A stretch of DNA of 64,000 bases from Escherichia phage Mansfield, in the sequence record MK903282.1. One strand, 5' to 3'. The notes beneath the pieces are model-generated. The model searched no databases. It saw nothing but the letters and a program-made list of their open reading frames with translations, and was not told the origin of the DNA. This document shows, piece by piece, positions 1,290 through 64,000 of this stretch (position 1 is the first letter of the stretch; every line of letters starts with the position of its first letter). A program made the position numbers and the translations under genes.

Positions 1290-1327
1290 CTCACTTGTTA
1301 ACGTATAATGAGTATAACTTAATAGAG

Positions 1328-1363: not shown

Positions 1364-3655
1364 TTATTTTGCTGCCTTTAGCGCGGCTATCTCTGCCTTC
1401 AAATCTTCAATTTGCTTATTGAGATACTGCACACAACCCATCAAGTCCATGACGATTGGGTTGTTGTCCACTGAAGGTCGGTCGCGCGTCTTCTCGCCTA
1501 TCTTATTGCCTTCCTCATCAAAAATATCCTCATAAGGCATTTCATGATGCTTGATGTATTGTGGTGCGATCACCTCCGCTTCTTCGGCAATAATCCCGAA
1601 TCTTACGCGCTCTTGCTCGTCATCCTTGTAGACAAAGTTCACTAGACGCTGTGAATTGATTCTGTCCATCGCTTCCTTTGCATCTGCATCAACGATGTCC
1701 CTTTTATATTCAAGACCGGACGTGCCTTGAAGCGCGATTGTTCCAGATGTTGAAGTCGGGAAGTCGAGAGTGATTTCACCAGTACGGTTGCCATCCTTGC
1801 GACGGAAGAATAAACGATAGTAGCGCGTACCGTTGGTGCCCAGCGCGGCTTCAAAAAACATCATACCGCCTACAACCGTGTCAGGGACTGTTCCGCCGCC
1901 GATGTAGTTTGGCTTCATCGAAAGTTGCGGGTACTGCCCATCAATGATTGAAACGCTGCCAGCAAATACTGCGTTTCCTTTGGAAGTTATCATCCCAGGG
2001 GCAGTAAAATCACCTCTTTCGTTAAAGTCATATACCGCTGTCAATCCGCTTGTTCGGTTATACACGTTTAAACGTGCATAATACGTCGCGCCAATCGCTG
2101 CGCGGATACGCCAACTCATTTGCGCTTCTTGAACGCCATTAACGTTGTAGCGTGAAATGATTTCGCCGCCGTCAGCAGTGGTGCCTGGGCCTGGCATAGC
2201 GGAGTCACCAGTGATCACACTCCAAGATGTATTCGCTGCAACAAACCCGCCAGATGCACGAATAACCCAGACGCCTACAAAGCAGTCAGGGCGCACCTTT
2301 GACGAGCGTCCGTAAGCGGCATTCGACCTGCTTGCGCTATAGTTGAATGTTCCGTATCTGGTTTCAGAAGAAGGCGTTGCAATATTTATTGCTTGGTTGT
2401 TTTGTGAAGAAAAAGAGAATGCACCATATCCATTGCCTGTTTGATATGTATACGCGGTGAAAGAGCCTGTTATGTCTGGGGCACCGTTTTCAAACACATC
2501 ACCTGCAGCAGATGATATTCCGCCGTCACCACGTCCGAACAATTCCTTAATTGAACCCGTCTGCACGCCGTTAAAATCAGGTACGCGAAATGTCGTCGTA
2601 CCGTTACCGGAAGAATAACGACCGCGTTTTTTCGAGTCTGCAAGCCAGTCAGCATCAGCAATAGGGGAAAGCATTTGTGCATACGCCCAAAGCTCAGGCC
2701 AGTCTGCACGGTTAAGTAATTGACCGTCCGCTACGACCTCGTACGGTTGGATATATGCACGACTATTTCGTAAGTGGAAGTCCCCAACGCCATAGTTCAT
2801 AACACCGTTCATGTTTGGCCCAACGGTGCCTGTATTTACTAAGTTTTCCACCCAACGCTTTGTCGCGGCATCATAATCGTTGACTGGGTCACCAGCAAGC
2901 GGCGTTGAACCTTGTGGGCGAATGTTTAACCATGCTTGAGCATTCTCTCCAGAGCCTGTGCCGCCCATGGAAGTCGGAACAACGCTCTGATCGGCCACAG
3001 GTCCGAATCCGAATGCATCTTTCATCCCCTGAATTGTGGTTTGGCCTGTTCCACCGTTCGATATTGGGATGATGCTCTGCTCACTGTAGATTGCTTTCCA
3101 AGGACTCCAACCAACAACTGGGTCATGAACTCGAATAAATTGAGAACCATTATTGTTGTATATGGTGTATATTTGTACGCATCCATCAGCGCCATTTGCA
3201 TAATTCTGCTTAACTTCCAGAACACCAGCAATTTGGGCTGGATAGTTTAGAGCAGGTGATGCATTGCTTGATCTGTCTTGATAATAATAACCAAACCAGG
3301 TGCCAGTCAGAGCATTGAGATTTATTCCAGATGGAATAGGCCCGAAATTTCTAACAGTATTGGTCAAAGATGCGGCAGTAGTACGAATTGAAAGTAAATC
3401 ACCAGCCGCCCATGCACGTGCTGCCGTACCTTCTTGTGCACGTTGAACGGTCAGGACGTTTCCAACCACGGCTGTTACTGTGACGATTTCGAATTGGAGG
3501 CCTGTTGCAGCGTCGACGATTGTCGCCACTACACGCTCGTTTGCGCCCAAAGTCGGAAAACCCGACCCTGAGCGAATTGTTATTGTGGTGTCTGAAGTCG
3601 TCGTTGGTTGAGCCAGCGCGACCTCAAAGTTGTTTTTGAATATTAGCCTTGGCAT
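1364..3655 (-). CDS. tail fiber / tail spike protein with C-terminal intramolecular chaperone (peptidase S74-like) domain
   Basis: 763 aa; Gly/Thr/Asn-rich body with repeated GGTG motifs; C-terminal region (LVNFVYKDDEQERVRFGIIAEEAEVIAPQY ... ending in a coiled coil) resembles the auto-cleaving chaperone domain of endosialidases and T5 L-shaped fiber. Confidence 0.7.
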   Translation of the reverse strand: MPRLIFKNNFEVALAQPTTTSDTTITIRSGSGFPTLGANERVVATIVDAATGLQFEIVTVTAVVGNVLTVQRAQEGTAARAWAAGDLLSIRTTAASLTNTVRNFGPIPSGINLNALTGTWFGYYYQDRSSNASPALNYPAQIAGVLEVKQNYANGADGCVQIYTIYNNNGSQFIRVHDPVVGWSPWKAIYSEQSIIPISNGGTGQTTIQGMKDAFGFGPVADQSVVPTSMGGTGSGENAQAWLNIRPQGSTPLAGDPVNDYDAATKRWVENLVNTGTVGPNMNGVMNYGVGDFHLRNSRAYIQPYEVVADGQLLNRADWPELWAYAQMLSPIADADWLADSKKRGRYSSGNGTTTFRVPDFNGVQTGSIKELFGRGDGGISSAAGDVFENGAPDITGSFTAYTYQTGNGYGAFSFSSQNNQAINIATPSSETRYGTFNYSASRSNAAYGRSSKVRPDCFVGVWVIRASGGFVAANTSWSVITGDSAMPGPGTTADGGEIISRYNVNGVQEAQMSWRIRAAIGATYYARLNVYNRTSGLTAVYDFNERGDFTAPGMITSKGNAVFAGSVSIIDGQYPQLSMKPNYIGGGTVPDTVVGGMMFFEAALGTNGTRYYRLFFRRKDGNRTGEITLDFPTSTSGTIALQGTSGLEYKRDIVDADAKEAMDRINSQRLVNFVYKDDEQERVRFGIIAEEAEVIAPQYIKHHEMPYEDIFDEEGNKIGEKTRDRPSVDNNPIVMDLMGCVQYLNKQIEDLKAEIAALKAAK

Positions 3656-3693
3656 TTTACGGTCCTCGTTTTGTCGACAACCGTATTATAACC

Positions 3694-4035
3694 TTAATTT
3701 CTTTTGAGAGGAATATGACGGTTGCTGTCATTATTTGGTTTAATAATGAGCATAAAAACGATTAGAAAGATGATGGCTGATATACTTAATTCAATCAGCG
3801 CGGCTTGAGATATGGATTGATCTTCATGATACTGCTTTTGCATTTCCGCTCTCTTTTGAGCGCAAACTTCAGGCGATATATAATCTCCTTTTGAGTTGCC
3901 ATAATAAATCTCGCCATTCTCAGAAATAAGCCTGCCGCAAATATCCGTATCGGCCTTTGCGCTTGACATCATAATAACGGTGCCGATGATAGCAGCAATT
4001 GTCCAAATTAGCAGTTGTGATAAAGTGTTGTTCAT
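3694..4035 (-). CDS. small membrane protein (N- and C-terminal hydrophobic segments)
   Basis: 113 aa; N-terminal signal/TM segment and C-terminal TM helix; directly downstream of the tail fiber gene. Confidence 0.45.
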   Translation of the reverse strand: MNNTLSQLLIWTIAAIIGTVIMMSSAKADTDICGRLISENGEIYYGNSKGDYISPEVCAQKRAEMQKQYHEDQSISQAALIELSISAIIFLIVFMLIIKPNNDSNRHIPLKRN

Positions 4036-10845: not shown

Positions 10846-11766
10846 ATGACGATACCAATCAGCACGTTTCCTCTATCTGGACAAACGCCAGTATTGCCTG
10901 CTGTATATGCTAACGGTTTGGCGATTGTTTCAGATTTTACATCCGACAAAAACCTGATTGTTCCATTGAGTCCGCCATTGGCGTCTGGATACAATTCAGT
11001 TGGTCAATTCTTTATGATCGGTAATGACGGCGATTCTACCAGCAAGCCGAATCTGACACTTTCAGTTCCCAAAATGAACATAACAGACGTGCAGACTGGT
11101 TTAACTGCGTCTACAATCACCATCGCTTTTGGCGAAGCAGTGATTATAGGCATGGAGTCTGGAGGGTCCAAGAATGCTGTCGCCGTTAAGGTAGTCAAAT
11201 CCAGCGGCAATCAATACACGTTACCAGCGGCAACGGCTTCTGTTCTCGGCGGCGTCAAAATAGGAAGTGGCATAAGCGTTGCAGGTGACGGTACAATTAG
11301 CGTGACTCAATACTCGTTACCGATTGCATCAGCATCAACCTTAGGTGGCGTAAAGGTAGGCACGACATTATCAATTGATGGTTCTGGAGTTCTTAATATT
11401 CCGTCAAGCACTGTGCAAAACGCAAGCAATAGTGTAAGCAATCCTCCGACAACTCTGGTGAATCTGGCAACATTAAACCTGCCTGCAGGGAAATGGCTTG
11501 TGACGGCAAGTCAGTTGACTGTCGCGACAGCAGGAATTCAAGCGAATACCGGAATTACAGTCAAATTGTCAACGAGCAATTCAGATATTACTGATGATGC
11601 ATTTACGATGTCAGCTGGCATTCGGGCTGCAGGTCGTTTCGGCGGCAATATTCCAACAAAGATAATTACTCTTGCCGCGCCTGGCAATGTGTATCTAAAC
11701 TATCAATGCACAGATGCGTTGACGTCTACCGTTTACGGACAGATCACCGCAATTAAGTTGAACTAA
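10846..11766 (+). CDS. virion structural protein with internal tandem repeats (fiber-like)
   Basis: ATG at 10846 with GAGGT RBS; repeats ATASVLGGVKIGSGISVAGDGTISVT and ASASTLGGVKVGTTLSIDGSGVLNI. Confidence 0.45.
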   Translation: MTIPISTFPLSGQTPVLPAVYANGLAIVSDFTSDKNLIVPLSPPLASGYNSVGQFFMIGNDGDSTSKPNLTLSVPKMNITDVQTGLTASTITIAFGEAVIIGMESGGSKNAVAVKVVKSSGNQYTLPAATASVLGGVKIGSGISVAGDGTISVTQYSLPIASASTLGGVKVGTTLSIDGSGVLNIPSSTVQNASNSVSNPPTTLVNLATLNLPAGKWLVTASQLTVATAGIQANTGITVKLSTSNSDITDDAFTMSAGIRAAGRFGGNIPTKIITLAAPGNVYLNYQCTDALTSTVYGQITAIKLN

Positions 11767-11776
11767 AGAGGAAGTT

Positions 11777-11914
11777 ATGCAAAAGATTATTCAGTCACGT
11801 TATGTTAAAGTGCGAAATATTAATTGCAACTCTCTGCTTTCTTGGAAATGGGCCGTTTACGATTCGATGCTGATTGGCGTTTTAGTTGCTGGAGTGCTTT
11901 TTAATATTCACTGA
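11777..11914 (+). CDS. small hydrophobic ORF (45 aa), hypothetical
   Basis: Unlisted ORF with AGAGGAAG RBS; C-terminal hydrophobic segment MLIGVLVAGVLF. Confidence 0.25.
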   Translation: MQKIIQSRYVKVRNINCNSLLSWKWAVYDSMLIGVLVAGVLFNIH

Positions 11915-11944
11915 ATCGCCTGGCAATGGATTGCCGCAGGATTT

Positions 11945-12235
11945 TACGCGTATAATGACGTATCATCCGTATCAAGTAAGTATTTGTTTTCAAAAGAATC
12001 TTACGTATGATACGGATGATACGCGTTGCCGCGATACTTTATAGGAATTCAAATAAATTAATTTAAAATTATATATCTAATTTAATTTTATTTTTTTATA
12101 AACTCTTATATATGAAAAGTATCCGTATCATCCGTATCATCCGTAGCACACCAGTGATAGCGCGGCTTATACACCGATACGGATAAAAATACGCCTCATT
12201 TTATCCGTATCATCCGTATCACACTAATTAAGGCG
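11945..12235. repeat. iteron-like repeat region: about 10 copies of 9-mer ATCCGTATC/GATACGGAT in both orientations flanking an AT-rich stretch
   Basis: Read directly: GTATCATCCGTATCA (11960-11974), inverted TGATACGGATGATACGCG (12008-12025), tandem ATCCGTATCATCCGTATCATCCGTAGC (12121-12147), GATACGGAT (about 12176-12184), TTATCCGTATCATCCGTATCACAC (12201-12224); AT-rich block 12040-12120. Confidence 0.6.
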
Positions 12236-12278
12236 CGGCTATATCGGTTGTTATACATATTCAAACCATAATTATTGT

Positions 12279-12307
12279 TTGCCTAAGTTTTTTTCATTAG
12301 ATATAAT
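12279..12307 (+). promoter_or_regulatory. sigma70-like promoter for scaffold/capsid operon
   Basis: TTGCCT-N17-TATAAT upstream of the scaffold gene. Confidence 0.4.
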
Positions 12308-12336
12308 ACACAATACTTATTTGAGGGTGGATGCGA

Positions 12337-13752
12337 ATGCAAACGGCACGCGAAATTGACAAAAATGGATTCTTGACGATTGTGGGTTGTCCCATTTCGT
12401 CATTTGGCATTTTTGATTATTCTGCAGGTCAGGTTGGACTTGATGGTGATCCGAATCGCATCGTAAAAGTTTATCGCCCAGAGTCAGCGGTGAAAGACCC
12501 CGAAGCGATAGATTCATTCAAAAATATCCCTTTCATCGACAATCACGAAATGCTTTCTGGATTCGAAGGTGATGAGGATAACACAGCACCCGAAGAGTAT
12601 GGCGTTGATGGAGTTCTAACTGGCAATGTTTATTATGACAAGCCATGGATGCGCGGCGACCTTAAAGTGTTTAGCCGTCGTCTGAAGAAGGCCATCGACT
12701 CTGGAAAGGTTGACTTGTCTTTGGGCTATGACTGTGAATTCATCATACAGTCTGGAGAGTTTGACGGGCAGCCGTATGAAGTGGTGCAGACAACTCTTCG
12801 CGGCAACCACATTGCTCTCGTGGACGTTGGTCGAGTACCAGGTGCACGGGTGCTGGATGGTCGTTGCTTTGACCATCTTTGTTTGACGACTGTAACACCA
12901 TCCAACGAGGATTTAGACATGCCAAAACCGTTAAAAGGTAAAGCGCGTGATAACGCTGTTGAACAGCTGAAATCACTGATCCCTGCGCTCGAACAATTTC
13001 TGAATGAAGAGAGCACCGAAGCTGCTCATCAGGACGAAGTTGAAGTGAAAGCAGAAGAGAAGGATTCAACCGAAGAACGTGAAGAAGTGATGGTTGATCC
13101 AGAAGTCAAAGCAGAAGCTGAAGAGACTCCAGAAGGTGAAGAGAAGTTTGAAGTTGAAACTGAATCTCACGCTGGCGGCGAGCTTCCGCAACTGATCAGC
13201 CAAATCGAAGCACTTATTGCAAAACTGAAAGGTGGCGCGGTAGGTGATGAAGAAGAAGTTGAAGCCGAAGTCAAAGACGAAGAAGAAGTTGAAGTCAAGG
13301 CTGAAGATGTATCACCTTGCGACAAAGCTGAAGATGTGGTTAGCGGCCTGCAAAACAGCAACGTAAAGGGGGCTTCGGTCGAAAAAGATGACAAACCGAC
13401 AAAAGCGGCGAAAGCGTCGCCAGGTCCAGCAAAAGGGGAACACTCAATGGCATCTGATTCAGCAGTTGCTGCTTTCTACGCTGATTCTGCTCGTAAGAAT
13501 AGCCTCTACCAGCGCCTGTCTAAAGTTGTTGGTGCCTTTGATCATGCAACTATGGACTCCAAGTCCGTAGCGAAATATGGCGCTAAAAAGTTAGGCTTGA
13601 AGTGCGTTGATGGCGCTGAGTTTGACGTTGTGGATAACTATCTGCGCGGCGTTGAACACGGTCAAAAACAGCGTGTAGTCGCAAAACAAAAGGCCGCTGC
13701 GGATTCTGCAGCAACTGACGAAGCATTTGAAGCTTGGTTGAAAGGGGAATAA
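12337..13752 (+). CDS. capsid scaffolding protein (acidic, coiled-coil; N-terminal globular domain of unknown function, possibly protease-like)
   Basis: Glu/Val/Lys-rich low-complexity middle (EVEVKAEEKD..., DEEEVEAEVKDEEEVEVKAED), located between head morphogenesis gene and capsid gene; ATG 12337 better spaced from GAGGGTGG than 12331. Confidence 0.5.
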   Translation: MQTAREIDKNGFLTIVGCPISSFGIFDYSAGQVGLDGDPNRIVKVYRPESAVKDPEAIDSFKNIPFIDNHEMLSGFEGDEDNTAPEEYGVDGVLTGNVYYDKPWMRGDLKVFSRRLKKAIDSGKVDLSLGYDCEFIIQSGEFDGQPYEVVQTTLRGNHIALVDVGRVPGARVLDGRCFDHLCLTTVTPSNEDLDMPKPLKGKARDNAVEQLKSLIPALEQFLNEESTEAAHQDEVEVKAEEKDSTEEREEVMVDPEVKAEAEETPEGEEKFEVETESHAGGELPQLISQIEALIAKLKGGAVGDEEEVEAEVKDEEEVEVKAEDVSPCDKAEDVVSGLQNSNVKGASVEKDDKPTKAAKASPGPAKGEHSMASDSAVAAFYADSARKNSLYQRLSKVVGAFDHATMDSKSVAKYGAKKLGLKCVDGAEFDVVDNYLRGVEHGQKQRVVAKQKAAADSAATDEAFEAWLKGE

Positions 13753-19627: not shown

Positions 19628-20095
19628 ATGATTAACGTTTCCGGTTTTGGCGCTTCGATTCGTTTAGTGGCATCAAACACTTTTCCAAATGGTGTAACTC
19701 TTTCTGATTTCGCAGATGATGCTGATCCGATTGACGCGCCTGATCTTCAAATCTCTGAAGCAGCAATGGGATTGAACGGTGACCTGGTAGTCTGGAACCG
19801 TGCCAACCCTCTTGAAGTAGGCGTCAACATCATCCCTACTTCTGAAAGCGATGTGAACTTAGATGTTCTGGCTGCGGCTAACCGTGTAGGCAAGCGCAAG
19901 AACTCTGCGAAAGATGTGATCACCCTTATTCTGACCTATCCTTCTGGCATGGTCATCACATTGAACAAGGGCACTTTGACGACTGGTTCAGTGATTCCTG
20001 GCATCCAGTCTCAGGGTCGTGTAAAAACACGTCAATATCGCTTTAAGTTTGAGAACGTAGTCAAAACTGGCGTGAGCAACCAAGAGATTTTATAA
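19628..20095 (+). CDS. tail tube-like protein
   Basis: 155 aa following the sheath-like gene; clear paralog of the 21046..21543 product. Confidence 0.45.
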   Translation: MINVSGFGASIRLVASNTFPNGVTLSDFADDADPIDAPDLQISEAAMGLNGDLVVWNRANPLEVGVNIIPTSESDVNLDVLAAANRVGKRKNSAKDVITLILTYPSGMVITLNKGTLTTGSVIPGIQSQGRVKTRQYRFKFENVVKTGVSNQEIL

Positions 20096-20424
20096 TGTAT
20101 CAAATACCACTTGACAGCGTACCTAACCAGAATATCAGCTTTAACGTTGACGGTGCTTATTGGCAGCTGCACATATTCGCCGCAATTGATCACATGTGCG
20201 CAGATGTTTACCGCAATGGCGAACTGTTGATTCAGGGGGTGCGTTGTTTTGGTGGTATACCAATGGTGCCTTATAAATATCTCATGATTGGGTACGGCAA
20301 CTTTATTTTTGACAGCGTACCCGATTATGAGAATTTTAACTCTGGCGGCTGTAATTTATATTACATGTCAGAATCTGAGTTGGCTGAATTCCAGAAGACT
20401 GCTGAAGCGGAGTTTGCAATTTGA
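20095..20424 (+). CDS. hypothetical tail-region protein
   Basis: 109-aa ORF, ATGA-type overlap with upstream gene. Confidence 0.4.
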   Translation: MYQIPLDSVPNQNISFNVDGAYWQLHIFAAIDHMCADVYRNGELLIQGVRCFGGIPMVPYKYLMIGYGNFIFDSVPDYENFNSGGCNLYYMSESELAEFQKTAEAEFAI

Positions 20425-20777
20425 CGACTCTAACGATTGAAGTTGATGATAACAACGACCTGTTTCTGCCTGATGGAAGAAATTTGAATATTCTGTCAGG
20501 AGAGAAGGCTATGGTACAAGTCATCAAGGCGGCGCATCAAATGCGACTTGGTGAAGACTTGTACGATGTTGAAAACGGAGTCGATTATTTAGGAACTGTT
20601 TTCAAATCGCCCGTTGATGAAGACGGTGCGAGAAAGTCGATTGCAGATGCTATTCTGAAGAAAGCAGACGTTGCCGGAATCGACTCATTGACTGTCACCA
20701 TCCAAAACGGTATTCTTGGATTCACCGCTGAAGTGGTGACTATTTATGGCGAACGTATAAAGGTGAGTAATCAATAA
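20421..20777 (+). CDS. hypothetical tail-region protein
   Basis: 118-aa ORF; track start is TTG with GGAG upstream; start uncertain. Confidence 0.35.
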   Translation: MTTLTIEVDDNNDLFLPDGRNLNILSGEKAMVQVIKAAHQMRLGEDLYDVENGVDYLGTVFKSPVDEDGARKSIADAILKKADVAGIDSLTVTIQNGILGFTAEVVTIYGERIKVSNQ

Positions 20778-40335: not shown

Positions 40336-40754
40336 GACAATTCCTCTAAATACTTGATGATGTGATGAATAGTTCCCTTCACGATTATCTCACGTTGAAC
40401 GTCTGCAATATTATAACGCTTTAATTCAATCGAAGGGTGGACTAAATAAAACATCTTCTCAGAATCGACTTTAAGCAAAACAAATGATGGGTATTTCCAA
40501 TCATTCCACGAAGAAAGAAAGCTGCACTGACCTTTCTCAAATGCATTTCTGAAAGGTGCAGTGGTGGCCCTTGCAGGCCACGATTCAAAGAACTTCATTT
40601 CAAGCCAAAAGCCGCGCCCTTTCCGGTTGGTGCCGATTACATCCGGCACGCCATCACCAGTCATCGATTCGATTCGTTGAAGCTTCAATATTGATTCTGA
40701 ATGCTTCTTCAAAGGTACGAATATGTATTTCTGTTCACGGTTATTTGTTGCCAT
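40332..40754 (-). CDS. VRR-NUC (PD-(D/E)xK) nuclease
   Basis: GVPDVIG...WLEMKF matches PD...(D/E)xK core; start moved to internal ATG 40754 (CAGGTG RBS) to avoid overlap with polymerase. Confidence 0.5.
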   Translation of the reverse strand: MATNNREQKYIFVPLKKHSESILKLQRIESMTGDGVPDVIGTNRKGRGFWLEMKFFESWPARATTAPFRNAFEKGQCSFLSSWNDWKYPSFVLLKVDSEKMFYLVHPSIELKRYNIADVQREIIVKGTIHHIIKYLEELS

Positions 40755-43638
40755 CTGGATACACCTGTTTGATAACGTCGACGATGAACATATCAATGCC
40801 TTCAAGCTTGCGCCCTTTCATCAGGAAGAATGCACCGTTCCCAACGTTCTCTGCAATGTATTTCCCGTACTTCTGGAACTTCTCTGGGCGAATCCTGAAA
40901 CGCATTGGCGAATCGGTCGAATCGTCTTTGCACATAAGGTCAATGAACTGAGTTTCAAGCTTGTTTCCATACTGGTCAAACTCTGCGTAGCGGCCATCGG
41001 ACTGAAGACCTTTTTTAAGCTTGCCGTGCTTTGTATAAATGCCGCGCTCAAGACGTTTACGTATGCGTGTCGCTTCGTTCTCGTCAGCCAGCACTTTCTT
41101 GGTCAACTTGCCGATTACTATTGCACGCTCGTCATCGCCGACTTCCTTCATCTGGCGTATTGAAGCACCGGAAGTAACGCCAATCAGATAGGGGTCATTA
41201 TACGCCCAGCCGAACTTTGTGTGCATTTCTGTAAGGTCGCCGTATTTGACTTCAGCATTGGCCAATGCGTCCTTTTGTTTTTGCGTTAAGGTTCCGGCTT
41301 CACGTGCTTCGATGTACTTCATCGCCTTCACCATTCCGTACCCTTTAGCGTTCATGATTCCGCCGATTAGCTTTCCGTTAGCGATGGTCCAGTTCATTGA
41401 AGAGTGGTCAGGGTCGATTGGCACATAATCCACGCCTTCCTTTGCAAGTTCACGTAATATCGCAATCGTCTGGTCTTCGTCCTTGGCAGCGCGTAAGCAA
41501 GCAGCGGCAAATTCCAACGGGTAGTGTCGTTTAAGCCACAAGGTCCAGTAGGTCACGACCGCGTATGATACGGAGTGTGACTTGTTAAAGCCCCATGACC
41601 CGAACGTCGCCATCGCCTGCCAAAGCTTTCTTGCATCCGCTTCCGGTACGCCGTTATTTATTGCGCCTGCAACGAAGTCTTCGCCAAGCTTGTTAAAGTA
41701 TTCCTCACCCTTACGACCTGACATCGCCTTACGCACAGCTGACGTTTTCGCCCAGTCGAATGAACCAATCTCTTTAACCACGGCCATGATTTGCTCTTGG
41801 TAAAGAAACACGCCGTAAGTCTCTTTTAAGTATGGCTCAAGCTGCGGCACATCATACTCAATCGGCGCACGCCCTGCCGCGCGTTCGATGTATTTCTGGG
41901 CCATACCGGATGACAACGGGCCAGGTCGGCCAAGTGCTGTCAGGTTATCGATTTTGTTAAAGTTATCAACGTGCACAAAGTTGGTTACTGAGCGTACAGC
42001 ATCGCCTTCAAACTGAAATATGCCTGACATCTTGTTTTCGTTAAGGATGTCAAGGACGCTTTGATCATTGAGCTTGATTCCGTACAGCGTTTCAGCATCT
42101 ATCACGCCAGTATCAGAAATGATGCCGAGGGTGCGAAGGCCCAACGCATCAAGCTTCAAAAGGTTAAGATATTCGCTGTCAGGCTTATCAATTTGTGCAA
42201 TCCCTTCCGCCGTTACCGTACAGTAATCAGAGATTGGGTCGTTACACACAATGATTCCTGCTGCGTGAACGCCAGTGTGGGAAGGGTGAATCTCAAGGTC
42301 ACCCATGCATCGCGCGGCATCAGGATATTTAGCCACAAACTCTTGGCCCGTGGTCGTTGTTGCAAAGGTATCCTCCAGGCCGTGACCATAACGGGCGTCA
42401 CCGGATGAGTATTCAAGCAATGCGTTTTTAATGTTGGCCGTTTCGTGATAGCCAATGTTAAACTTCTTACCAACCTGAGCCATTACTGAGTTGGCCTTAA
42501 GCGTGTTGATGTTGCCAAGCTTTGCAACGTTCATTTCGCCGTATTTTTCTTTAAGGTAATCAAACACCATATAGCGTTTGGTATCCTCAAAGTCAATATC
42601 AATATCAGGAAGGTCGGCGCGGCTTACGTCGATGAATCGGGCAAAAAGCAGCTTATACGGGATTGGATCAACTTCCGTGATGCCGAGGCAATAACAAACC
42701 AATGAACCAGCCGATGAGCCGCGAGCGGGTCCAACGAGCATTTTTGTTTTTGCGAATCGTACAAGGTCCGCTACCACCAGAAAGTATGAGTCAAAATCTT
42801 TCAGCTGAATCTGGTGAATCTCTTCGTTGAATCGGTCCTCATATTCCTGAGTCCATTCTTTGATGTGACCTGCCTTAAGTCGGTACTCCATCCCCTCACG
42901 AGCAAGCTTTACCATGTCACCAGCAAGGTGGATAATCGGTGCCTTGCGCAGCTTCAGGTCAAGCCCCACAATTCCGTTTGCGATGTCAACTGCATTGGCC
43001 GTTGCTTGATTCAGCTCATCTTCTGTCAGGATTCCTTTAAGCTGTTTGCGCAAGTCTTCCGCGTCAACGATGCAGTGCGGCTTGACCGTGTCGCGAACTT
43101 CCCAAGCATAAGCAAAGTCAACGTGCTCAGGTGAAGGCATGTGGTTGTATCCGGTTAAAACCAGCGGCCTTCCGTTGCTGCGGTGAGCCAATGCCTGGCG
43201 CTTAGCCAAAAGGAACGATGATGGGTTGACGTCTATATAATCGTAGTCCTCTGGTCGCAGCAACTCCACGGCACCGCCACAGAATTTAACGACGCCATCC
43301 AACGCCCCGAACTCTGCACGGGTCAGTCCGCCGCGCTGTGTTGCAAGTGTCGTAGCGTTGTAAAAGGATTTCAGGTCAAGCGCCAATATCCAAGCCTTCG
43401 GTTTGAATCCCTTTTTCGGGTCCGCATCAGGGTCGATGATTGGAATCTCCATGCCGAACATAGGCTTGATATCATTCTTCTGACATTCCTTTTCCCAGCG
43501 AACGTGACCCCATGTATTGTTATCAACTAATGCCGCGACTTCGCAGCCCAACTCTTTGAGCCGTGCTATAATTTCAGGATGCCGTCCATATACTTCTTTG
43601 AACGTGTAACCGCTGCGAACTCTCAATTGTGGAAACAT
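40741..43638 (-). CDS. dnaE: DNA polymerase III alpha subunit (DnaE-type replicative polymerase)
   Basis: 965 aa; N-terminal PHP region, PARGSSAGSLVCYCLGITEVDP and FNKSHSVSYA motifs characteristic of DnaE. Confidence 0.9.
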   Translation of the reverse strand: MFPQLRVRSGYTFKEVYGRHPEIIARLKELGCEVAALVDNNTWGHVRWEKECQKNDIKPMFGMEIPIIDPDADPKKGFKPKAWILALDLKSFYNATTLATQRGGLTRAEFGALDGVVKFCGGAVELLRPEDYDYIDVNPSSFLLAKRQALAHRSNGRPLVLTGYNHMPSPEHVDFAYAWEVRDTVKPHCIVDAEDLRKQLKGILTEDELNQATANAVDIANGIVGLDLKLRKAPIIHLAGDMVKLAREGMEYRLKAGHIKEWTQEYEDRFNEEIHQIQLKDFDSYFLVVADLVRFAKTKMLVGPARGSSAGSLVCYCLGITEVDPIPYKLLFARFIDVSRADLPDIDIDFEDTKRYMVFDYLKEKYGEMNVAKLGNINTLKANSVMAQVGKKFNIGYHETANIKNALLEYSSGDARYGHGLEDTFATTTTGQEFVAKYPDAARCMGDLEIHPSHTGVHAAGIIVCNDPISDYCTVTAEGIAQIDKPDSEYLNLLKLDALGLRTLGIISDTGVIDAETLYGIKLNDQSVLDILNENKMSGIFQFEGDAVRSVTNFVHVDNFNKIDNLTALGRPGPLSSGMAQKYIERAAGRAPIEYDVPQLEPYLKETYGVFLYQEQIMAVVKEIGSFDWAKTSAVRKAMSGRKGEEYFNKLGEDFVAGAINNGVPEADARKLWQAMATFGSWGFNKSHSVSYAVVTYWTLWLKRHYPLEFAAACLRAAKDEDQTIAILRELAKEGVDYVPIDPDHSSMNWTIANGKLIGGIMNAKGYGMVKAMKYIEAREAGTLTQKQKDALANAEVKYGDLTEMHTKFGWAYNDPYLIGVTSGASIRQMKEVGDDERAIVIGKLTKKVLADENEATRIRKRLERGIYTKHGKLKKGLQSDGRYAEFDQYGNKLETQFIDLMCKDDSTDSPMRFRIRPEKFQKYGKYIAENVGNGAFFLMKGRKLEGIDMFIVDVIKQVYPDGNK

Positions 43639-49102: not shown

Positions 49103-49948
49103 TTATTCCGCTTGATCACCGTCTTCGGCATCTTCGTTGGATTCAACATCGACAAACTCGATGTGACCCATCTCTTCCAGCTTGCTCAGGTAGGAGCGAA
49201 CTGAAGCGCCAAACAGTTGATCTTTAACTTTTTCGCCCAGCTCATCGATAGACTGTGCCACGCCAACTTCGCCTTCTTTGATCGCCGCCAGAACGCGTCC
49301 ACGGGTGGAATGCTCTTGCGGCTGACTCAGGCCATTGCCAGTGTAGATGAAGTGAGTAGCTTTTGCACGACGCTGACCATTGGCCTTTTTGGCAGCCTTA
49401 CGTTCTGCGATGGCTTTGCGACGTTCTTCAGCTTCTTGCTTACGCTGTTCTTTCTGCTGTTCTGCAGCTTCTTTCGCCGCAATCTTAGCAGCTTCACGCT
49501 CTGCCTTGCGTTTCGCTTTGGCTTCTTCTTTGGCCTTCTCTTTTTCGGCCTTCGCTGCAGCACGGGCTTGATCACGCTCTGCTTTCTTAGCAGCAGCTTG
49601 TTCAGCTTTCAGGCGCTTGGCTTCTTCTTTAGCCTTTGCCTTTTCGATTTCTTTCGCTGCTTTAGCGGCTTCACGCTCTGCTTTCTTAGCAGCAGCCTTT
49701 TCTGCACGCTCTTTGGCCTTCTTGGCTGCTTCTTCAGCACGCTTCTGAGCCTTCTCATCAGCAGCCTGCTTGCGTTTCAGGGCAGCTTCTTCACGCTTGG
49801 CTTGTTTTTCCTGCTCACGCTTCTGGCGTTTTTCTTCGGCTTCTTTCTTTTTAGCCAGACGTTTTTCTTCAGCCACGCGACGACGTTCTGCTGCAGCTGC
49901 TTGTTTTTCTTCTTTAGATAATACTTTGATTGCTTCGGCCATGTTCAC
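49103..49948 (-). CDS. charged single-alpha-helix (ER/K-rich) protein with C-terminal globular domain
   Basis: 281 aa; about 200 residues of near-pure K/A/E/R/Q, then a globular segment and acidic tail. Confidence 0.6.
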   Translation of the reverse strand: MNMAEAIKVLSKEEKQAAAAERRRVAEEKRLAKKKEAEEKRQKREQEKQAKREEAALKRKQAADEKAQKRAEEAAKKAKERAEKAAAKKAEREAAKAAKEIEKAKAKEEAKRLKAEQAAAKKAERDQARAAAKAEKEKAKEEAKAKRKAEREAAKIAAKEAAEQQKEQRKQEAEERRKAIAERKAAKKANGQRRAKATHFIYTGNGLSQPQEHSTRGRVLAAIKEGEVGVAQSIDELGEKVKDQLFGASVRSYLSKLEEMGHIEFVDVESNEDAEDGDQAE

Positions 49949-57579: not shown

Positions 57580-58074
57580 ATGATCATCCATCGCCCTTTA
57601 ATGTTAAAGAAAGAAGAGTGTGAAGAAATCTTACACGCATTGAGACGTGCAGAAGCAGATGTTAACCTTCGTGTAAGGGTAAGAGACTTCATCATGAAGG
57701 AGTTTGAAAGTGATGATGTTGACTATGCCATTGATGAATTGCTGAAGCGCAACGTCAAGGGTGCAACAATACCTATTTACCATCAATCTCGTTGCGTACA
57801 AGTTCCTATCAAGACTTATGTTGATAAAAAGCCGCGCCTTAAGCCTGTTCCGGCTGATAAAATAGAAGTCGGTGATGTTATCGTCTGCGTCTATTACGGC
57901 AGTCAGATTTTCAATGCTGTTGTAGTAAGACGATACAGCATAAACGGATGCCAATACATGGAAGTGACAAACGCAAAGAAAGAACCTGGCAGCTTGAACG
58001 TGGCTTATGCATTAAGGGAATTCAGCAGCCCTTCTTGCACTCTTTATAAGGTACTCGACCATGGCTCATGTTAA
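57580..58074 (+). CDS. hypothetical protein
   Basis: 164-aa ORF. Confidence 0.45.
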   Translation: MIIHRPLMLKKEECEEILHALRRAEADVNLRVRVRDFIMKEFESDDVDYAIDELLKRNVKGATIPIYHQSRCVQVPIKTYVDKKPRLKPVPADKIEVGDVIVCVYYGSQIFNAVVVRRYSINGCQYMEVTNAKKEPGSLNVAYALREFSSPSCTLYKVLDHGSC

Positions 58075-58408
58075 AGACGAAGTGTTGTTTGGCGCAGAGA
58101 TTAAGAAGCGTGTCAGAGAAATGGCAGGAGAAGAAAGAATGAAACCGCTGCGAAAAGGCTTTGATCACATCAATGGCGTATCCGGCACGAAGGAGATGGG
58201 CGTGTTGGTAAAAGACATTCGCGTTGGCGATGTCATGGTCATCGACCGACAAGCGCGAGTCGTTATCCAGGTGCAACCGAACGATGATGAAGGATGTGTC
58301 CTATTGAAGCTGAAGAAACTTTCATCCAGCCCAGCAAAGGCCGTCATCAAGAAGGTATGGCCCGAAGGATTACGCAAACTCATCCGTAGACCCGTGGAGA
58401 ATTTGTAA
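58061..58408 (+). CDS. hypothetical protein
   Basis: 115-aa ORF. Confidence 0.45.
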   Translation: MAHVKDEVLFGAEIKKRVREMAGEERMKPLRKGFDHINGVSGTKEMGVLVKDIRVGDVMVIDRQARVVIQVQPNDDEGCVLLKLKKLSSSPAKAVIKKVWPEGLRKLIRRPVENL

Positions 58409-58644
58409 TGGAAGATTATATCAACGCTATGTATATGGCATTCTATGTCGTGCAACTTCCGAATGGCGCGGTATTCTATGGCGAGTATACCTTTGACGTT
58501 CAATATGACGTTTCAGAGCGTACAGTGTTAACAAGGGAGTTGATTGCGGACCTTAAGGACGACATCAAACGCGTCGCGCGACAGCAGTTCAATTTGGATG
58601 ACACAGTCATCGTTCGAATTACCGGAATAACAGAGGTGCAGTAA
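58408..58644 (+). CDS. hypothetical protein
   Basis: 78-aa ORF. Confidence 0.45.
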   Translation: MEDYINAMYMAFYVVQLPNGAVFYGEYTFDVQYDVSERTVLTRELIADLKDDIKRVARQQFNLDDTVIVRITGITEVQ

Positions 58645-58973: not shown

Positions 58974-58997
58974 ATATCAAAAAGGTGAGCTAAATGC

Positions 58998-59026
58998 TTG
59001 CCTTTTATTTTATCAATACTTATACT
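58998..59026 (+). promoter_or_regulatory. conserved early promoter-like element, copy 1
   Basis: TTGCCT-N17-TATACT inside a block (AAAAAGGTGAGCTAAATGCTTGCCTTTT) that is repeated at 60241. Confidence 0.4.
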
Positions 59027-59058: not shown

Positions 59059-59376
59059 ATGATTTACTTAGGCATTGACCAGGAACAAGACGAGCGGTTA
59101 GGAAGCGTGTTAAACGTAGACTTAAACACAGCTGTACACATCAGGCCTTGGCCAGAGGCGCATCCCGACGTAGTTGTACCCGTTGCGCCTTGGACGCGTT
59201 ACGTTGCCATTGACAATGATGGCCTTGTCCATTGCTACTCAGAAAAGCCGACATACTTCGAAAAGTATCACCAATGGCTTATGACTGGTTGGGCAAAGGT
59301 GCGATGCTGCGGCGAAGTCGGTCTGGAAGGCTGGAGCTTCGAGGCTAGTGAATCGTGTGTCGAGGTGCAATTATGA
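59059..59376 (+). CDS. hypothetical protein
   Basis: 105-aa ORF with GAGGTG RBS. Confidence 0.45.
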   Translation: MIYLGIDQEQDERLGSVLNVDLNTAVHIRPWPEAHPDVVVPVAPWTRYVAIDNDGLVHCYSEKPTYFEKYHQWLMTGWAKVRCCGEVGLEGWSFEASESCVEVQL

Positions 59377-60237: not shown

Positions 60238-60259
60238 TTCAAAAAGGTGAGCTAAATGC

Positions 60260-60287
60260 TTGCCTTTTTATTTGCCTGTATTATACT
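60260..60287 (+). promoter_or_regulatory. conserved early promoter-like element, copy 2
   Basis: TTGCCT-N16-TATACT within repeated block AAAAAGGTGAGCTAAATGCTTGCCTTTTT. Confidence 0.4.
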
Positions 60288-62646: not shown

Positions 62647-63071
62647 TACAACGTTACGATGTTGATTATTGCACGCAGCACGCTTGCACTTGCGAAGTTG
62701 TAAAGGATAATGAAGGCGAGTATGTTGAATATGAGGACTATGCCGCGCTGGAAGCGAAATATAGTGAAGCGCAACGAGAGTTGGTTGCATTACGCTCACA
62801 GGTCCGTGATGCGTCGGCGCTCGTTAAGCAGTTACATGATGTTGTTGCTACTATAGGCGTGGGCGCTGATGCTTGCGAAAAGCAGGATGAAGCGTGGACT
62901 GTGTGGGAGTCTAACGCAACCAATCCCGTCCCAGCACAAATGGTCATGTATAAGTTGCGCGACGGCTATGAATCAAAAGCGCCTGTCATCTCGAACGAGT
63001 TGCGATGGGAGATGATGGGAATGCCACACGGAACAGACATCGTTGCTTATCGGGTCGTTAAGGAGGGGTGA
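62643..63071 (+). CDS. hypothetical protein
   Basis: 142-aa ORF. Confidence 0.45.
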   Translation: MIQRYDVDYCTQHACTCEVVKDNEGEYVEYEDYAALEAKYSEAQRELVALRSQVRDASALVKQLHDVVATIGVGADACEKQDEAWTVWESNATNPVPAQMVMYKLRDGYESKAPVISNELRWEMMGMPHGTDIVAYRVVKEG

Positions 63072-63520
63072 TGGGTAAACGGCTTATCGCCGCTGGTTGG
63101 GCCATACCGAAGTGGGGCCATCGTGCGCATTACTTTGACGAAGGAGAAGTGCAAAGCCTTTGCGGTCGCGCAACATATTTCGGTGATGAGCGCGTCAGCG
63201 GCGATTATATCGACTCGCTTTTAGGTAAAGGTGATTGCAAGAAGTGCCAGAATATATTAAGGGATATTCTCACGCAAAAAGGATTGCTTGAGCTTGATGA
63301 ATCGGAAGAAGTAATTGAACTTAAGCTTGAAGCAAATTACCTTATTTATACGTTCAAGAACTATTACGCAACTAATATGCGCTCAAAAATGAGCGAGGAA
63401 GTAATAGAAAAGGTGTTCACCTACAATCCGCTAAGGATGAATAAAACTAAATTGAAGAAGTTTAATATAATGTTAAGGAAAGAATTTAAAAGGCTAGGAG
63501 TGAAGAATTTTATATTTTAA
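63071..63520 (+). CDS. hypothetical protein
   Basis: ATG 63071 with AGGAGG RBS (track start 63068 is GTG). Confidence 0.45.
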   Translation: MGKRLIAAGWAIPKWGHRAHYFDEGEVQSLCGRATYFGDERVSGDYIDSLLGKGDCKKCQNILRDILTQKGLLELDESEEVIELKLEANYLIYTFKNYYATNMRSKMSEEVIEKVFTYNPLRMNKTKLKKFNIMLRKEFKRLGVKNFIF

Positions 63521-63538
63521 CTTTGACTAATGTTAAGA

Positions 63539-63561
63539 GGGCCGATTGGCCCTTTTGTTTG
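63539..63561 (+). terminator. intrinsic terminator ending the early operon
   Basis: GGGCC-gatt-GGCCC followed by TTTTGTTTG. Confidence 0.55.
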
Positions 63562-63800
63562 TCCGTGTGGTGTGAGTCTTTATTATTGGATAAAGCGATT
63601 GATTTGTGTAAATCTATTAGAGGATTGTGGGAAGTGAGTATTGTGACGTGAATTTTGCGTCTTGAATATGTGTGCGAATCTGGAAGATTATCGTACTGTG
63701 GTGCTGTTGGATTGGAGAGGGAATCACTAGGAATTGGAGCGTGTACCGTGGTGTGTGGTCCTGTGTGGTGCGCCGTCTATGGGATTGCCGCTTGAAATTA
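63562..63800. other. noncoding block with strong G+T strand skew
   Basis: About 240 nt with almost no C-rich stretch on the plus strand; repeated GTGTGG / GGATTG / GGAATTGG words; no ORF. Confidence 0.5.
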
Positions 63801-63839
63801 AAAAGGAGATATAGTTAGCTGGCTAACCTTACGCATAGA

Positions 63840-63980
63840 ATTTAAACGTATAATGACGTAAGATTTGGACCTATCCGTAGTTCACTCCACACACTTCTAT
63901 GGTGCGCCGCGACTGGGTTCAGTGGTACATCTTACGGATGATACGGATGATACGCGTCGCCGCTATACTTTATACAACTT
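63840..63980. repeat. second copy of the repeat module found at 11945-12050
   Basis: ACGTATAATGACGTA (63844-63858) and CTTACGGATGATACGGATGATACGCGTCGCCGCTATACTTTATA (63930-63973) match the same two blocks at 11946-11960 and 12000-12043 with few mismatches. Confidence 0.55.
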
Positions 63981-64000
63981 TGAAAAAAACAATTAACTCC

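Follow-up and report, generated by a model that had tools for sequence, protein, structure and literature searches.

A candidate pac-like site of opposed iterons and an AT-rich core at the terminal-repeat boundary of a Wifcevirus-like Escherichia coli phage, with a paralogue ahead of the head protease gene

The window analysed here, a single stretch of 64,000 nucleotides, comes from a Wifcevirus-like E. coli myophage with up to 96% identity to WFH, ECML-117, FEC19 and other related records, and its last part, 63540-64000, is the left half of a noncoding control region of about 840 nt that reaches from a rightward operon of small genes to the gene for the small terminase (TerS). The operon, whose last ORF lies at 63068-63520, is closed on the plus strand by an intrinsic terminator at 63534-63561, in which the hairpin GGGCCGATTGGCCC (-15.2 kcal/mol, z = -3.8) is followed by a T-run; the same terminator is annotated as such in WFH, the closest relative, and is kept in eight type-1 genomes, changes being found only in the loop. 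Beyond it lies a G+T-rich spacer (63562-63800, plus strand) of 239 nt, composed of A50 C27 G79 T83 and therefore 68% G+T, and the 200-nt windows at 63551 and 63601 have the highest G+T content of the whole 64 kb (0.68, against a mean of 0.50 and a standard deviation of 0.038). The extreme G+T bias after the terminator that a preliminary description of this DNA had reported is thus the maximum for the window, and the terminator, the G+T block, the boxes and the 44-bp block of that description were all found where it had placed them. Within the small-gene operon there is also a 35-nt direct repeat, TCAAAAAGGTGAGCTAAATGCTTGCCTTTT(T)ATTT, whose copies at 58977-59011 and 60239-60273 are 94% identical and 1.26 kb apart.

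The conserved part of the locus, which we call module B, begins on the plus strand with the ACGTATAATGACGTA box at 63846-63860, which recurs with one mismatch at 11948-11962. A sigma-70 scan gave no properly spaced -35 element for this box, the best -35-like words lying 14 nt before TATAAT in both copies rather than at a hexamer spacing of 16-18 nt, and the TATACT further downstream is likewise unsupported as a standard promoter. A single iteron core on the minus strand follows at 63872-63879 (TACGGATA on that strand, TATCCGTA on the plus strand), and after it, on the plus strand, come the GCGCCGCGACTGGG word (63904-63917), which precedes the iterons, and the tandem 9-bp iterons TACGGATGA TACGGATGA TACG (63933-63954), which form the left arm of the module. 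The element GCCGCTATACTTTATA (63959-63974, plus strand), common to both modules described here, places a -10-like TATACT 15 nt past the iterons, though it is not kept in every Wifcevirus lineage. The last 26 positions (63975-64000, plus strand) are the left part of an AT-rich core and end in the terminal box AATTAACTCC (63991-64000), the next base being the left end of the virion DNA. When the module is extended with the WFH sequence past 64000, the core measures 91 nt with 82% A+T, and iterons are found in opposite orientations on either side of it.

In the window, exact copies of the iteron are confined to this module and to a second one, module A, near 12 kb: the 9-mer GATGATACG occurs seven times, always in one of the two modules, where about 0.5 copies would be expected, and 12 of the 17 copies of the core TACGGAT lie there as well. 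A scan of IMG/VR for the iteron pair returned mostly chance matches, plus four Wifcevirus genomes. In LBL3 and in each of the four Wifcevirus lineages the iteron pair is preceded by the word GCCGCGCC(T)GG, and the GCGCCGCGACTGGG word is akin to a heptamer found in excess throughout the genome.

The window holds other repeats as well. The heptamer GCGCGGC/GCCGCGC is present in 36 plus-strand and 25 minus-strand copies (at 1381, 1843, 3798, 6986, 12160, 12233 and 17682, for example) against about seven per strand expected under an order-2 model, and it forms part of each of the three most frequent 8-mers of the window. GCGCGGCT has 15 copies on the plus strand and three on the minus strand, independent of gene orientation, and tandem-like repeats with a 33/99-nt period occupy 49389-49738 within the leftward ORF 49103-49948.

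Module A (11946-12260, plus strand) is a paralogue of module B and lies ahead of the head protease gene. It comprises the box (11948-11962, plus strand), iterons on the minus strand (11959-11976) and on the plus strand (12002-12023), the block shared with module B (12028-12043, plus strand), an AT-rich core of 75 nt with 91% A+T (12044-12118), minus-strand iterons (12121-12145), a single plus-strand iteron (12176-12184) and further minus-strand iterons (12203-12220). Next come a sigma-70-like promoter, TTGCCT-17-TATAAT (12279-12307, plus strand), and, directly after it, the head maturation protease gene (12331-13752); GAAG-rich, acidic tandem-like repeats are found at 13033-13305 in this head protease/scaffold gene.

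The 44-bp block at 63931-63974 recurs at 12000-12043 with three mismatches, within an ungapped repeat of 66 nt at 83% identity, which confirms the recurrence at 11946-12043, 52 kb away, that had been described. Extending the sequence past 64000, for which we used WFH, showed the similarity to be longer than first noted, the two modules aligning over about 330 nt in a shared order: the CGTATAATGA box, the tandem iterons on the plus strand, GCCGC-ATACTTTATA, the AT-rich core, minus-strand iterons together with another plus-strand iteron, and a GCGGCTA word. At 100-200 nt past that word both modules have a sigma-70-like promoter and then a gene, the promoter ahead of the TerS gene reading TTGAAT-17-TATAAT directly from the WFH sequence; each module lies 100-300 nt upstream of a sigma-70-like late-gene promoter. 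Of the two, module A has the larger number of iterons and the stronger conservation; it has no known terminus, and the AACTCC terminal box is missing from the position equivalent to that in module B. The 10-mer CGTATAATGA itself occurs four times in the window against 0.12 expected, at 11949-11958 and 63847-63856 (both plus strand) in the modules, at 1302-1311 (plus strand) and at 41195-41204 (minus strand). The further box that had been noted at 1302-1316 is therefore real but comes without the rest of the module. This copy lies between leftward genes, on the strand opposite to them, and the one at 41195 lies inside the large leftward ORF 40741-43638, neither having any further similarity to the modules.

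The preliminary description had regarded the sequence as cut off at the window edge; the edge is real, but it is not arbitrary, since base 64000 aligns with the base immediately before the right-hand copy of the direct terminal repeat (DTR) of WFH. Exact DTRs are present in four related deposits, at 3701 bp in WFH, 3784 bp in WFC, 3533 bp in Ro157lw and 3899 bp in SP13. Their left boundary, AATTAACTCC|ATTTT, is identical in WFH, WFC and Ro157lw and differs in SP13 by one extra A, and the right boundary, GGGTCTTT|T(T)GGTGCG, is common to three of the four, the deposited right boundary of WFC differing by 83 nt. Because the lengths of the repeats differ, yet three of four share the right boundary, we consider the ends of the DTR to be set by sequence and not by headful measurement. 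With the boundary placed from the relatives' deposits, the window appears to stop at the left physical end of the genome, at which the source record was probably opened, hence the position of the edge. The terminus is thus placed from deposits of relatives and published predictions, rather than from the phage's own reads.

The terminal repeat of the wifceviruses is already known. For Mansfield a repeat of 3,673 bp was predicted by PhageTerm on sequencing reads, and the record was opened at the repeat boundary (PMC6753283); the termini of Ro157lw are likewise a PhageTerm prediction on sequencing reads (PMC6454146), and the paper on WFH and WFC gives about 3.7 kb, the method being unstated (PMC6563267). 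How such long repeats are generated has been described as unknown (PMC6454146, citing Casjens and Gilcrease). At its other end, the DTR of WFH is G+T-rich over the final 100 nt or so, and the right boundary lies within a noncoding region of 600 nt (seen at 3500-3880) that has repeats of its own, namely AATCATTnGCTTTC (three copies), TGTAACG (two copies) and AAATTTGCAGTACAC (two copies).

The first gene past the left boundary, which in the relatives starts at +361 from it and so lies outside the window, matches the small terminase of the Pbunavirus E217 in a search of PDB sequences (7UXE_A, E = 9e-33) and is 39% identical to gp73 of LBL3. The E217 TerS is itself already known, and its gene lies about 58 kb from that of TerL (PMC9611059). 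In WFH the gene is annotated at 202-834, from an ATG at +202; this codon is ATA in all other aligned genomes, and the similarity to the E217 protein sets in close to the start at 361. Pfam gave no match for any protein encoded in the repeat or in the neighbourhood, and PHROGs returned only families of unknown function.

Each of the 28 related records has both modules in the corresponding positions. Across these Wifcevirus records module A keeps 94-99% identity and its core is invariant; exactly one 9-nt unit of it is missing from Bas101. Upstream of the boundary the sequences of 17 Wifcevirus genomes fall into four mutually unalignable lineages, and through all 17 of them CGGATGATACGGAT and AAAA..AATTAACTCC are invariant, the repeat side being kept in all. 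Among eight close relatives only four of 200 columns vary in module B, as compared with 30 of 220 in flanking coding sequence and 51 of 239 in the G+T block.

A layout of two sites, one before a TerS homologue and one before the head protease, is found in Wifcevirus, in LBL3 (Pbunavirus) and in the Burkholderia phage BcepF1, each with an iteron of its own. In LBL3 the iteron GTAATTTGG is confined to 11596-11926, upstream of the head protease, and to 57803-58137, between a terminator and the TerS homologue; it is accompanied by a G+T-rich block, the GCCGCGCC word and an AT-rich stretch, and TATACTTT follows the tandem iterons as it does in the window. The iteron of BcepF1, TAACTAAG, forms two clusters only, before the protease and before the TerS homologue. 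The latter was found by tblastn at 20088-20525 on the minus strand (E = 7e-24), opposite several small annotated hypothetical genes, and the deposited annotation at this place is probably wrong, since the homologue lies on the opposite strand. The layout is not universal among relatives, because in the Xanthomonas phage XcP1 the position of module A is occupied by a terminator and a promoter alone. In Pbunavirus JG024 the putative pac site at 59,376 (PMC10913387) falls inside the equivalent of module B, and in SCUT-S1 a pac site has been predicted in an AT-rich region. The pbunaviruses, for their part, are reported to package by the headful mechanism and to be circularly permuted (PMC12345254, PMC10913387). 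In the papers that could be searched, we found nothing on an iteron module at the boundary, on a paralogue of it ahead of the head genes, or on a two-site layout kept in three genera with iterons specific to each lineage.

We propose that module B is a pac-like site of end formation and packaging initiation combined with a control region, of which the last 155 nt of the window would be the left arm, and give this reading a probability of roughly 0.6. It rests chiefly on the position of the left DTR boundary within the AT-rich core: a genome end adjoins the element in WFH, WFC, Ro157lw and SP13, the site lies beside the small-terminase gene in the relatives, and conserved, repeated motifs flank the presumed cut. 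Of the functions suggested in the preliminary description, packaging is thereby favoured for module B, where the DTR boundary of four deposits, the adjoining TerS gene and the pac equivalent of JG024 coincide. On this proposal, the opposed TACGGATGA iterons around the AT-rich core would bring in a sequence-specific protein of the phage, either TerS or a partner protein, which would position the terminase to nick or cut after AATTAACTCC, and the DTR would be duplicated as in T7-type phages, since both repeat boundaries are defined by sequence. Module A, lacking the terminal box, might bind the same protein but stay uncut, and could either co-regulate the genes for the head protease, scaffold and capsid with that for TerS or pair with the packaging site. 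The binding of a protein, its identity, the chemistry of cleavage and the roles of module A and of the G+T block are what we infer from the comparison of sequences.

The strongest competitor is that a transcription regulator of the phage uses the iterons as its operators, the terminus merely lying close to them. A regulatory function, which had also been suggested earlier, is plausible for either copy, since a sigma-70-like promoter and a late gene follow each of them. The full account, however, requires more than this: it holds that one lineage-specific DNA-binding protein switches the promoters of TerS and of the head protease, scaffold and capsid genes together, and that the terminase recognises only AATTAACTCC and the AT-rich site, or something else altogether. 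We regard the operator account as possible but the less probable of the two, and would say the same of each of these further postulates. It draws on the position of the sites ahead of one and the same pair of late genes in all three genera, with iterons peculiar to each lineage, as is typical of the co-evolution of regulators and operators, and on the gene-proximal sigma-70-like promoters that follow both modules. The tandem iterons of LBL3 lie within predicted sigma-70 promoters, a -10-like TATACT is found at a fixed 15 nt past the iterons in several units, and phage 14-1 has promoters that depend on phage factors. Module A, with its greater number of iterons, its still better conservation and no known end, is at least as compatible with an operator as with a terminase site, and a review reports the TerS of E217 to be without appreciable DNA binding in vitro (PMC9611059). 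Against this, no regulator was found among the proteins of the repeat and the neighbourhood in the Pfam and PHROGs searches, convergent arrays of iterons around an invariant AT-rich core would be unusual for a simple operator, and the -10-like element past the iterons is not conserved across the Wifcevirus lineages. An operator also leaves the cut site at the centre of one copy unexplained.

That the modules are replication origins we consider unlikely. An initiator would then bind the iterons on either side of an AT-rich element at which the DNA unwinds, transcription perhaps providing the priming as in T7 or T4, and the left genome end would be made at or near one of the modules, an added step that we think equally unlikely. 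Both modules do have iterons with an adjacent AT-rich element, in both orientations around a core of 75-91 nt with 82-91% A+T, and promoter-like elements adjoin the core; the origins of T7 and T4 combine a promoter with an AT-rich element, and the authors of the SCUT-S1 work speculated that the AT-rich pac region is an origin. No initiator gene was recognised among the neighbours, however, and the cumulative GC and AT skews track only the orientation of the genes and give no signal of an origin. In LBL3, the strand skew flanking the module is opposite in sign to that expected of a bidirectional origin. Unwinding, moreover, calls for AT-richness and not for the exact invariance seen in module A. 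Nothing specific was thus found in favour of an origin, which had been among the functions first put forward.

Far less probable still is the presence at 63560-63850 of a structured noncoding RNA or of genes for small proteins, as a long noncoding stretch after a terminator might suggest and as the many GGA words in it, or the three tiny CDS that the automated annotations of kaset and Bas101 place there, might be taken to support. There was no Rfam match, either for the whole window at the gathering score or for the locus at E<=10, and the G+T block combines neither a covariance match nor a stable fold with conserved sequence: its minimum free energies (z = +0.16 for the plus and -0.91 for the minus strand) are no better than those of shuffled sequences. 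No other part of the locus is so variable, and the variable columns of the block, with 1-nt, frameshifting indels among eight close relatives, argue that it is not coding. At the same position three other Wifcevirus lineages carry unrelated sequence, which cannot be aligned with it but is equally G+T-rich, so that composition is conserved here and sequence is not. We accordingly rejected the short ORFs in the block as genes, and the structured RNA proposed in the preliminary description fares no better, given its lack of an Rfam match, its fold and its fast evolution with indels.

Other explanations of the G+T block are candidates. A leftward transcript of the region would be G-poor and C+A-rich and might load Rho, insulating the operon upstream; the G+T-rich strands ending 3' beside a terminase cut may favour the loading of RecA; or the block may be a mutational footprint. 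E. coli Chi (GCTGGTGG) as its cause finds no support in the window, where only two copies per strand are present, about as many as expected. A G+T-rich block also lies at the equivalent position in LBL3 and, more briefly, in BcepF1. In the LBL3 genome, 57651-57900 holds the most G+T-rich and 58351-58600 the most C+A-rich 200-nt windows, and these extremes flank the iteron and AT-rich module upstream of the TerS gene.

The idea that the repeat arose in assembly or merely copies the terminal repeat, a scenario that had been named as fatal to the first description, has a negligible chance of being correct even though the window end abuts a genuine terminal repeat, for the copies are both internal, 52 kb apart and only some 83-93% alike (83% over 66 nt) where near-identical copies at the ends of the molecule would be looked for, module A is situated some 12 kb past the terminal repeat, and both copies are in place in the 28 related records, which come from independent laboratories.

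If module B is indeed the packaging site, the combination of iterons, AT-rich core and terminal box beside TerS provides a candidate cis element for long DTRs, and sister genera that differ in having fixed ends or headful packaging but have a common module architecture make the question of long DTRs experimentally approachable. Phages of Wifcevirus and Pbunavirus are in therapeutic use or under consideration for it, and to reboot such phages synthetically one must know their ends. A wider generalisation, which we think rather doubtful, is that of a two-site system across Lindbergviridae-like myophages, in which one rapidly co-evolving DNA-binding protein, possibly TerS, would bind identical, lineage-specific iterons in both the packaging site and the head-gene control region, with the G+T and C+A flanks serving as Chi-like or RecA-loading tracts. 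Were it true, the protein would couple capsid production to packaging, physically or through regulation; the strands with 3' ends at the cut would be G+T-rich by virtue of the flanks (G+T, joined in Pbunavirus by C+A); and the comparison of Wifcevirus, with its fixed repeat of 3.7 kb, and the headful Pbunavirus would show what converts a headful packager into one with long DTRs.

Among well-studied systems, the pac sites of P1 and SPP1 (pacL-pacC-pacR in the latter) have short repeated motifs that flank the cleavage region, AT-rich or bent DNA, and a location in or next to the small-terminase gene. Module B resembles them in the repeats that flank the presumed cut and in its place beside the TerS gene. 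It differs in that P1 and SPP1 are headful and permuted whereas here there are fixed ends and a terminal repeat of 3.5-3.9 kb, in its 9-bp tandem iterons of unrelated sequence and in the presence of a second full module before the head protease gene. The concatemer junction of T7 and T3 has a terminal repeat with short repeat arrays, replication promoters and AT-rich regions nearby. As in those phages, the terminal repeat of the wifceviruses is non-permuted and defined by sequence, repeat arrays and promoter or AT-rich elements lie just outside it, and the repeat must be duplicated during packaging; unlike theirs, it is about 20 times longer, and the terminase is that of a myovirus and of a different lineage. 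No RNA polymerase is known from PB1-type phages. A further likeness is to E217 and JG024, in the homologous TerS (E = 9e-33), in the wide separation of the genes for TerS and TerL and in the pac position within an equivalent iteron and AT-rich module, although the pbunaviruses are headful and permuted with the iteron GTAATTTGG and the phage examined here has the iteron TACGGATGA and fixed ends. Finally, in the two-site model for gp16 of T4, the small terminase pairs pac-like sequences in genes 16 and 19. That model offers a precedent for a sequence recognised by a terminase at two places, the small-terminase gene and the structural genes, but the sites of T4 are single, 24 bp long, intragenic and about 3 kb apart, while those described here are intergenic modules of 300 bp that lie about 16 kb apart across the terminal repeat.
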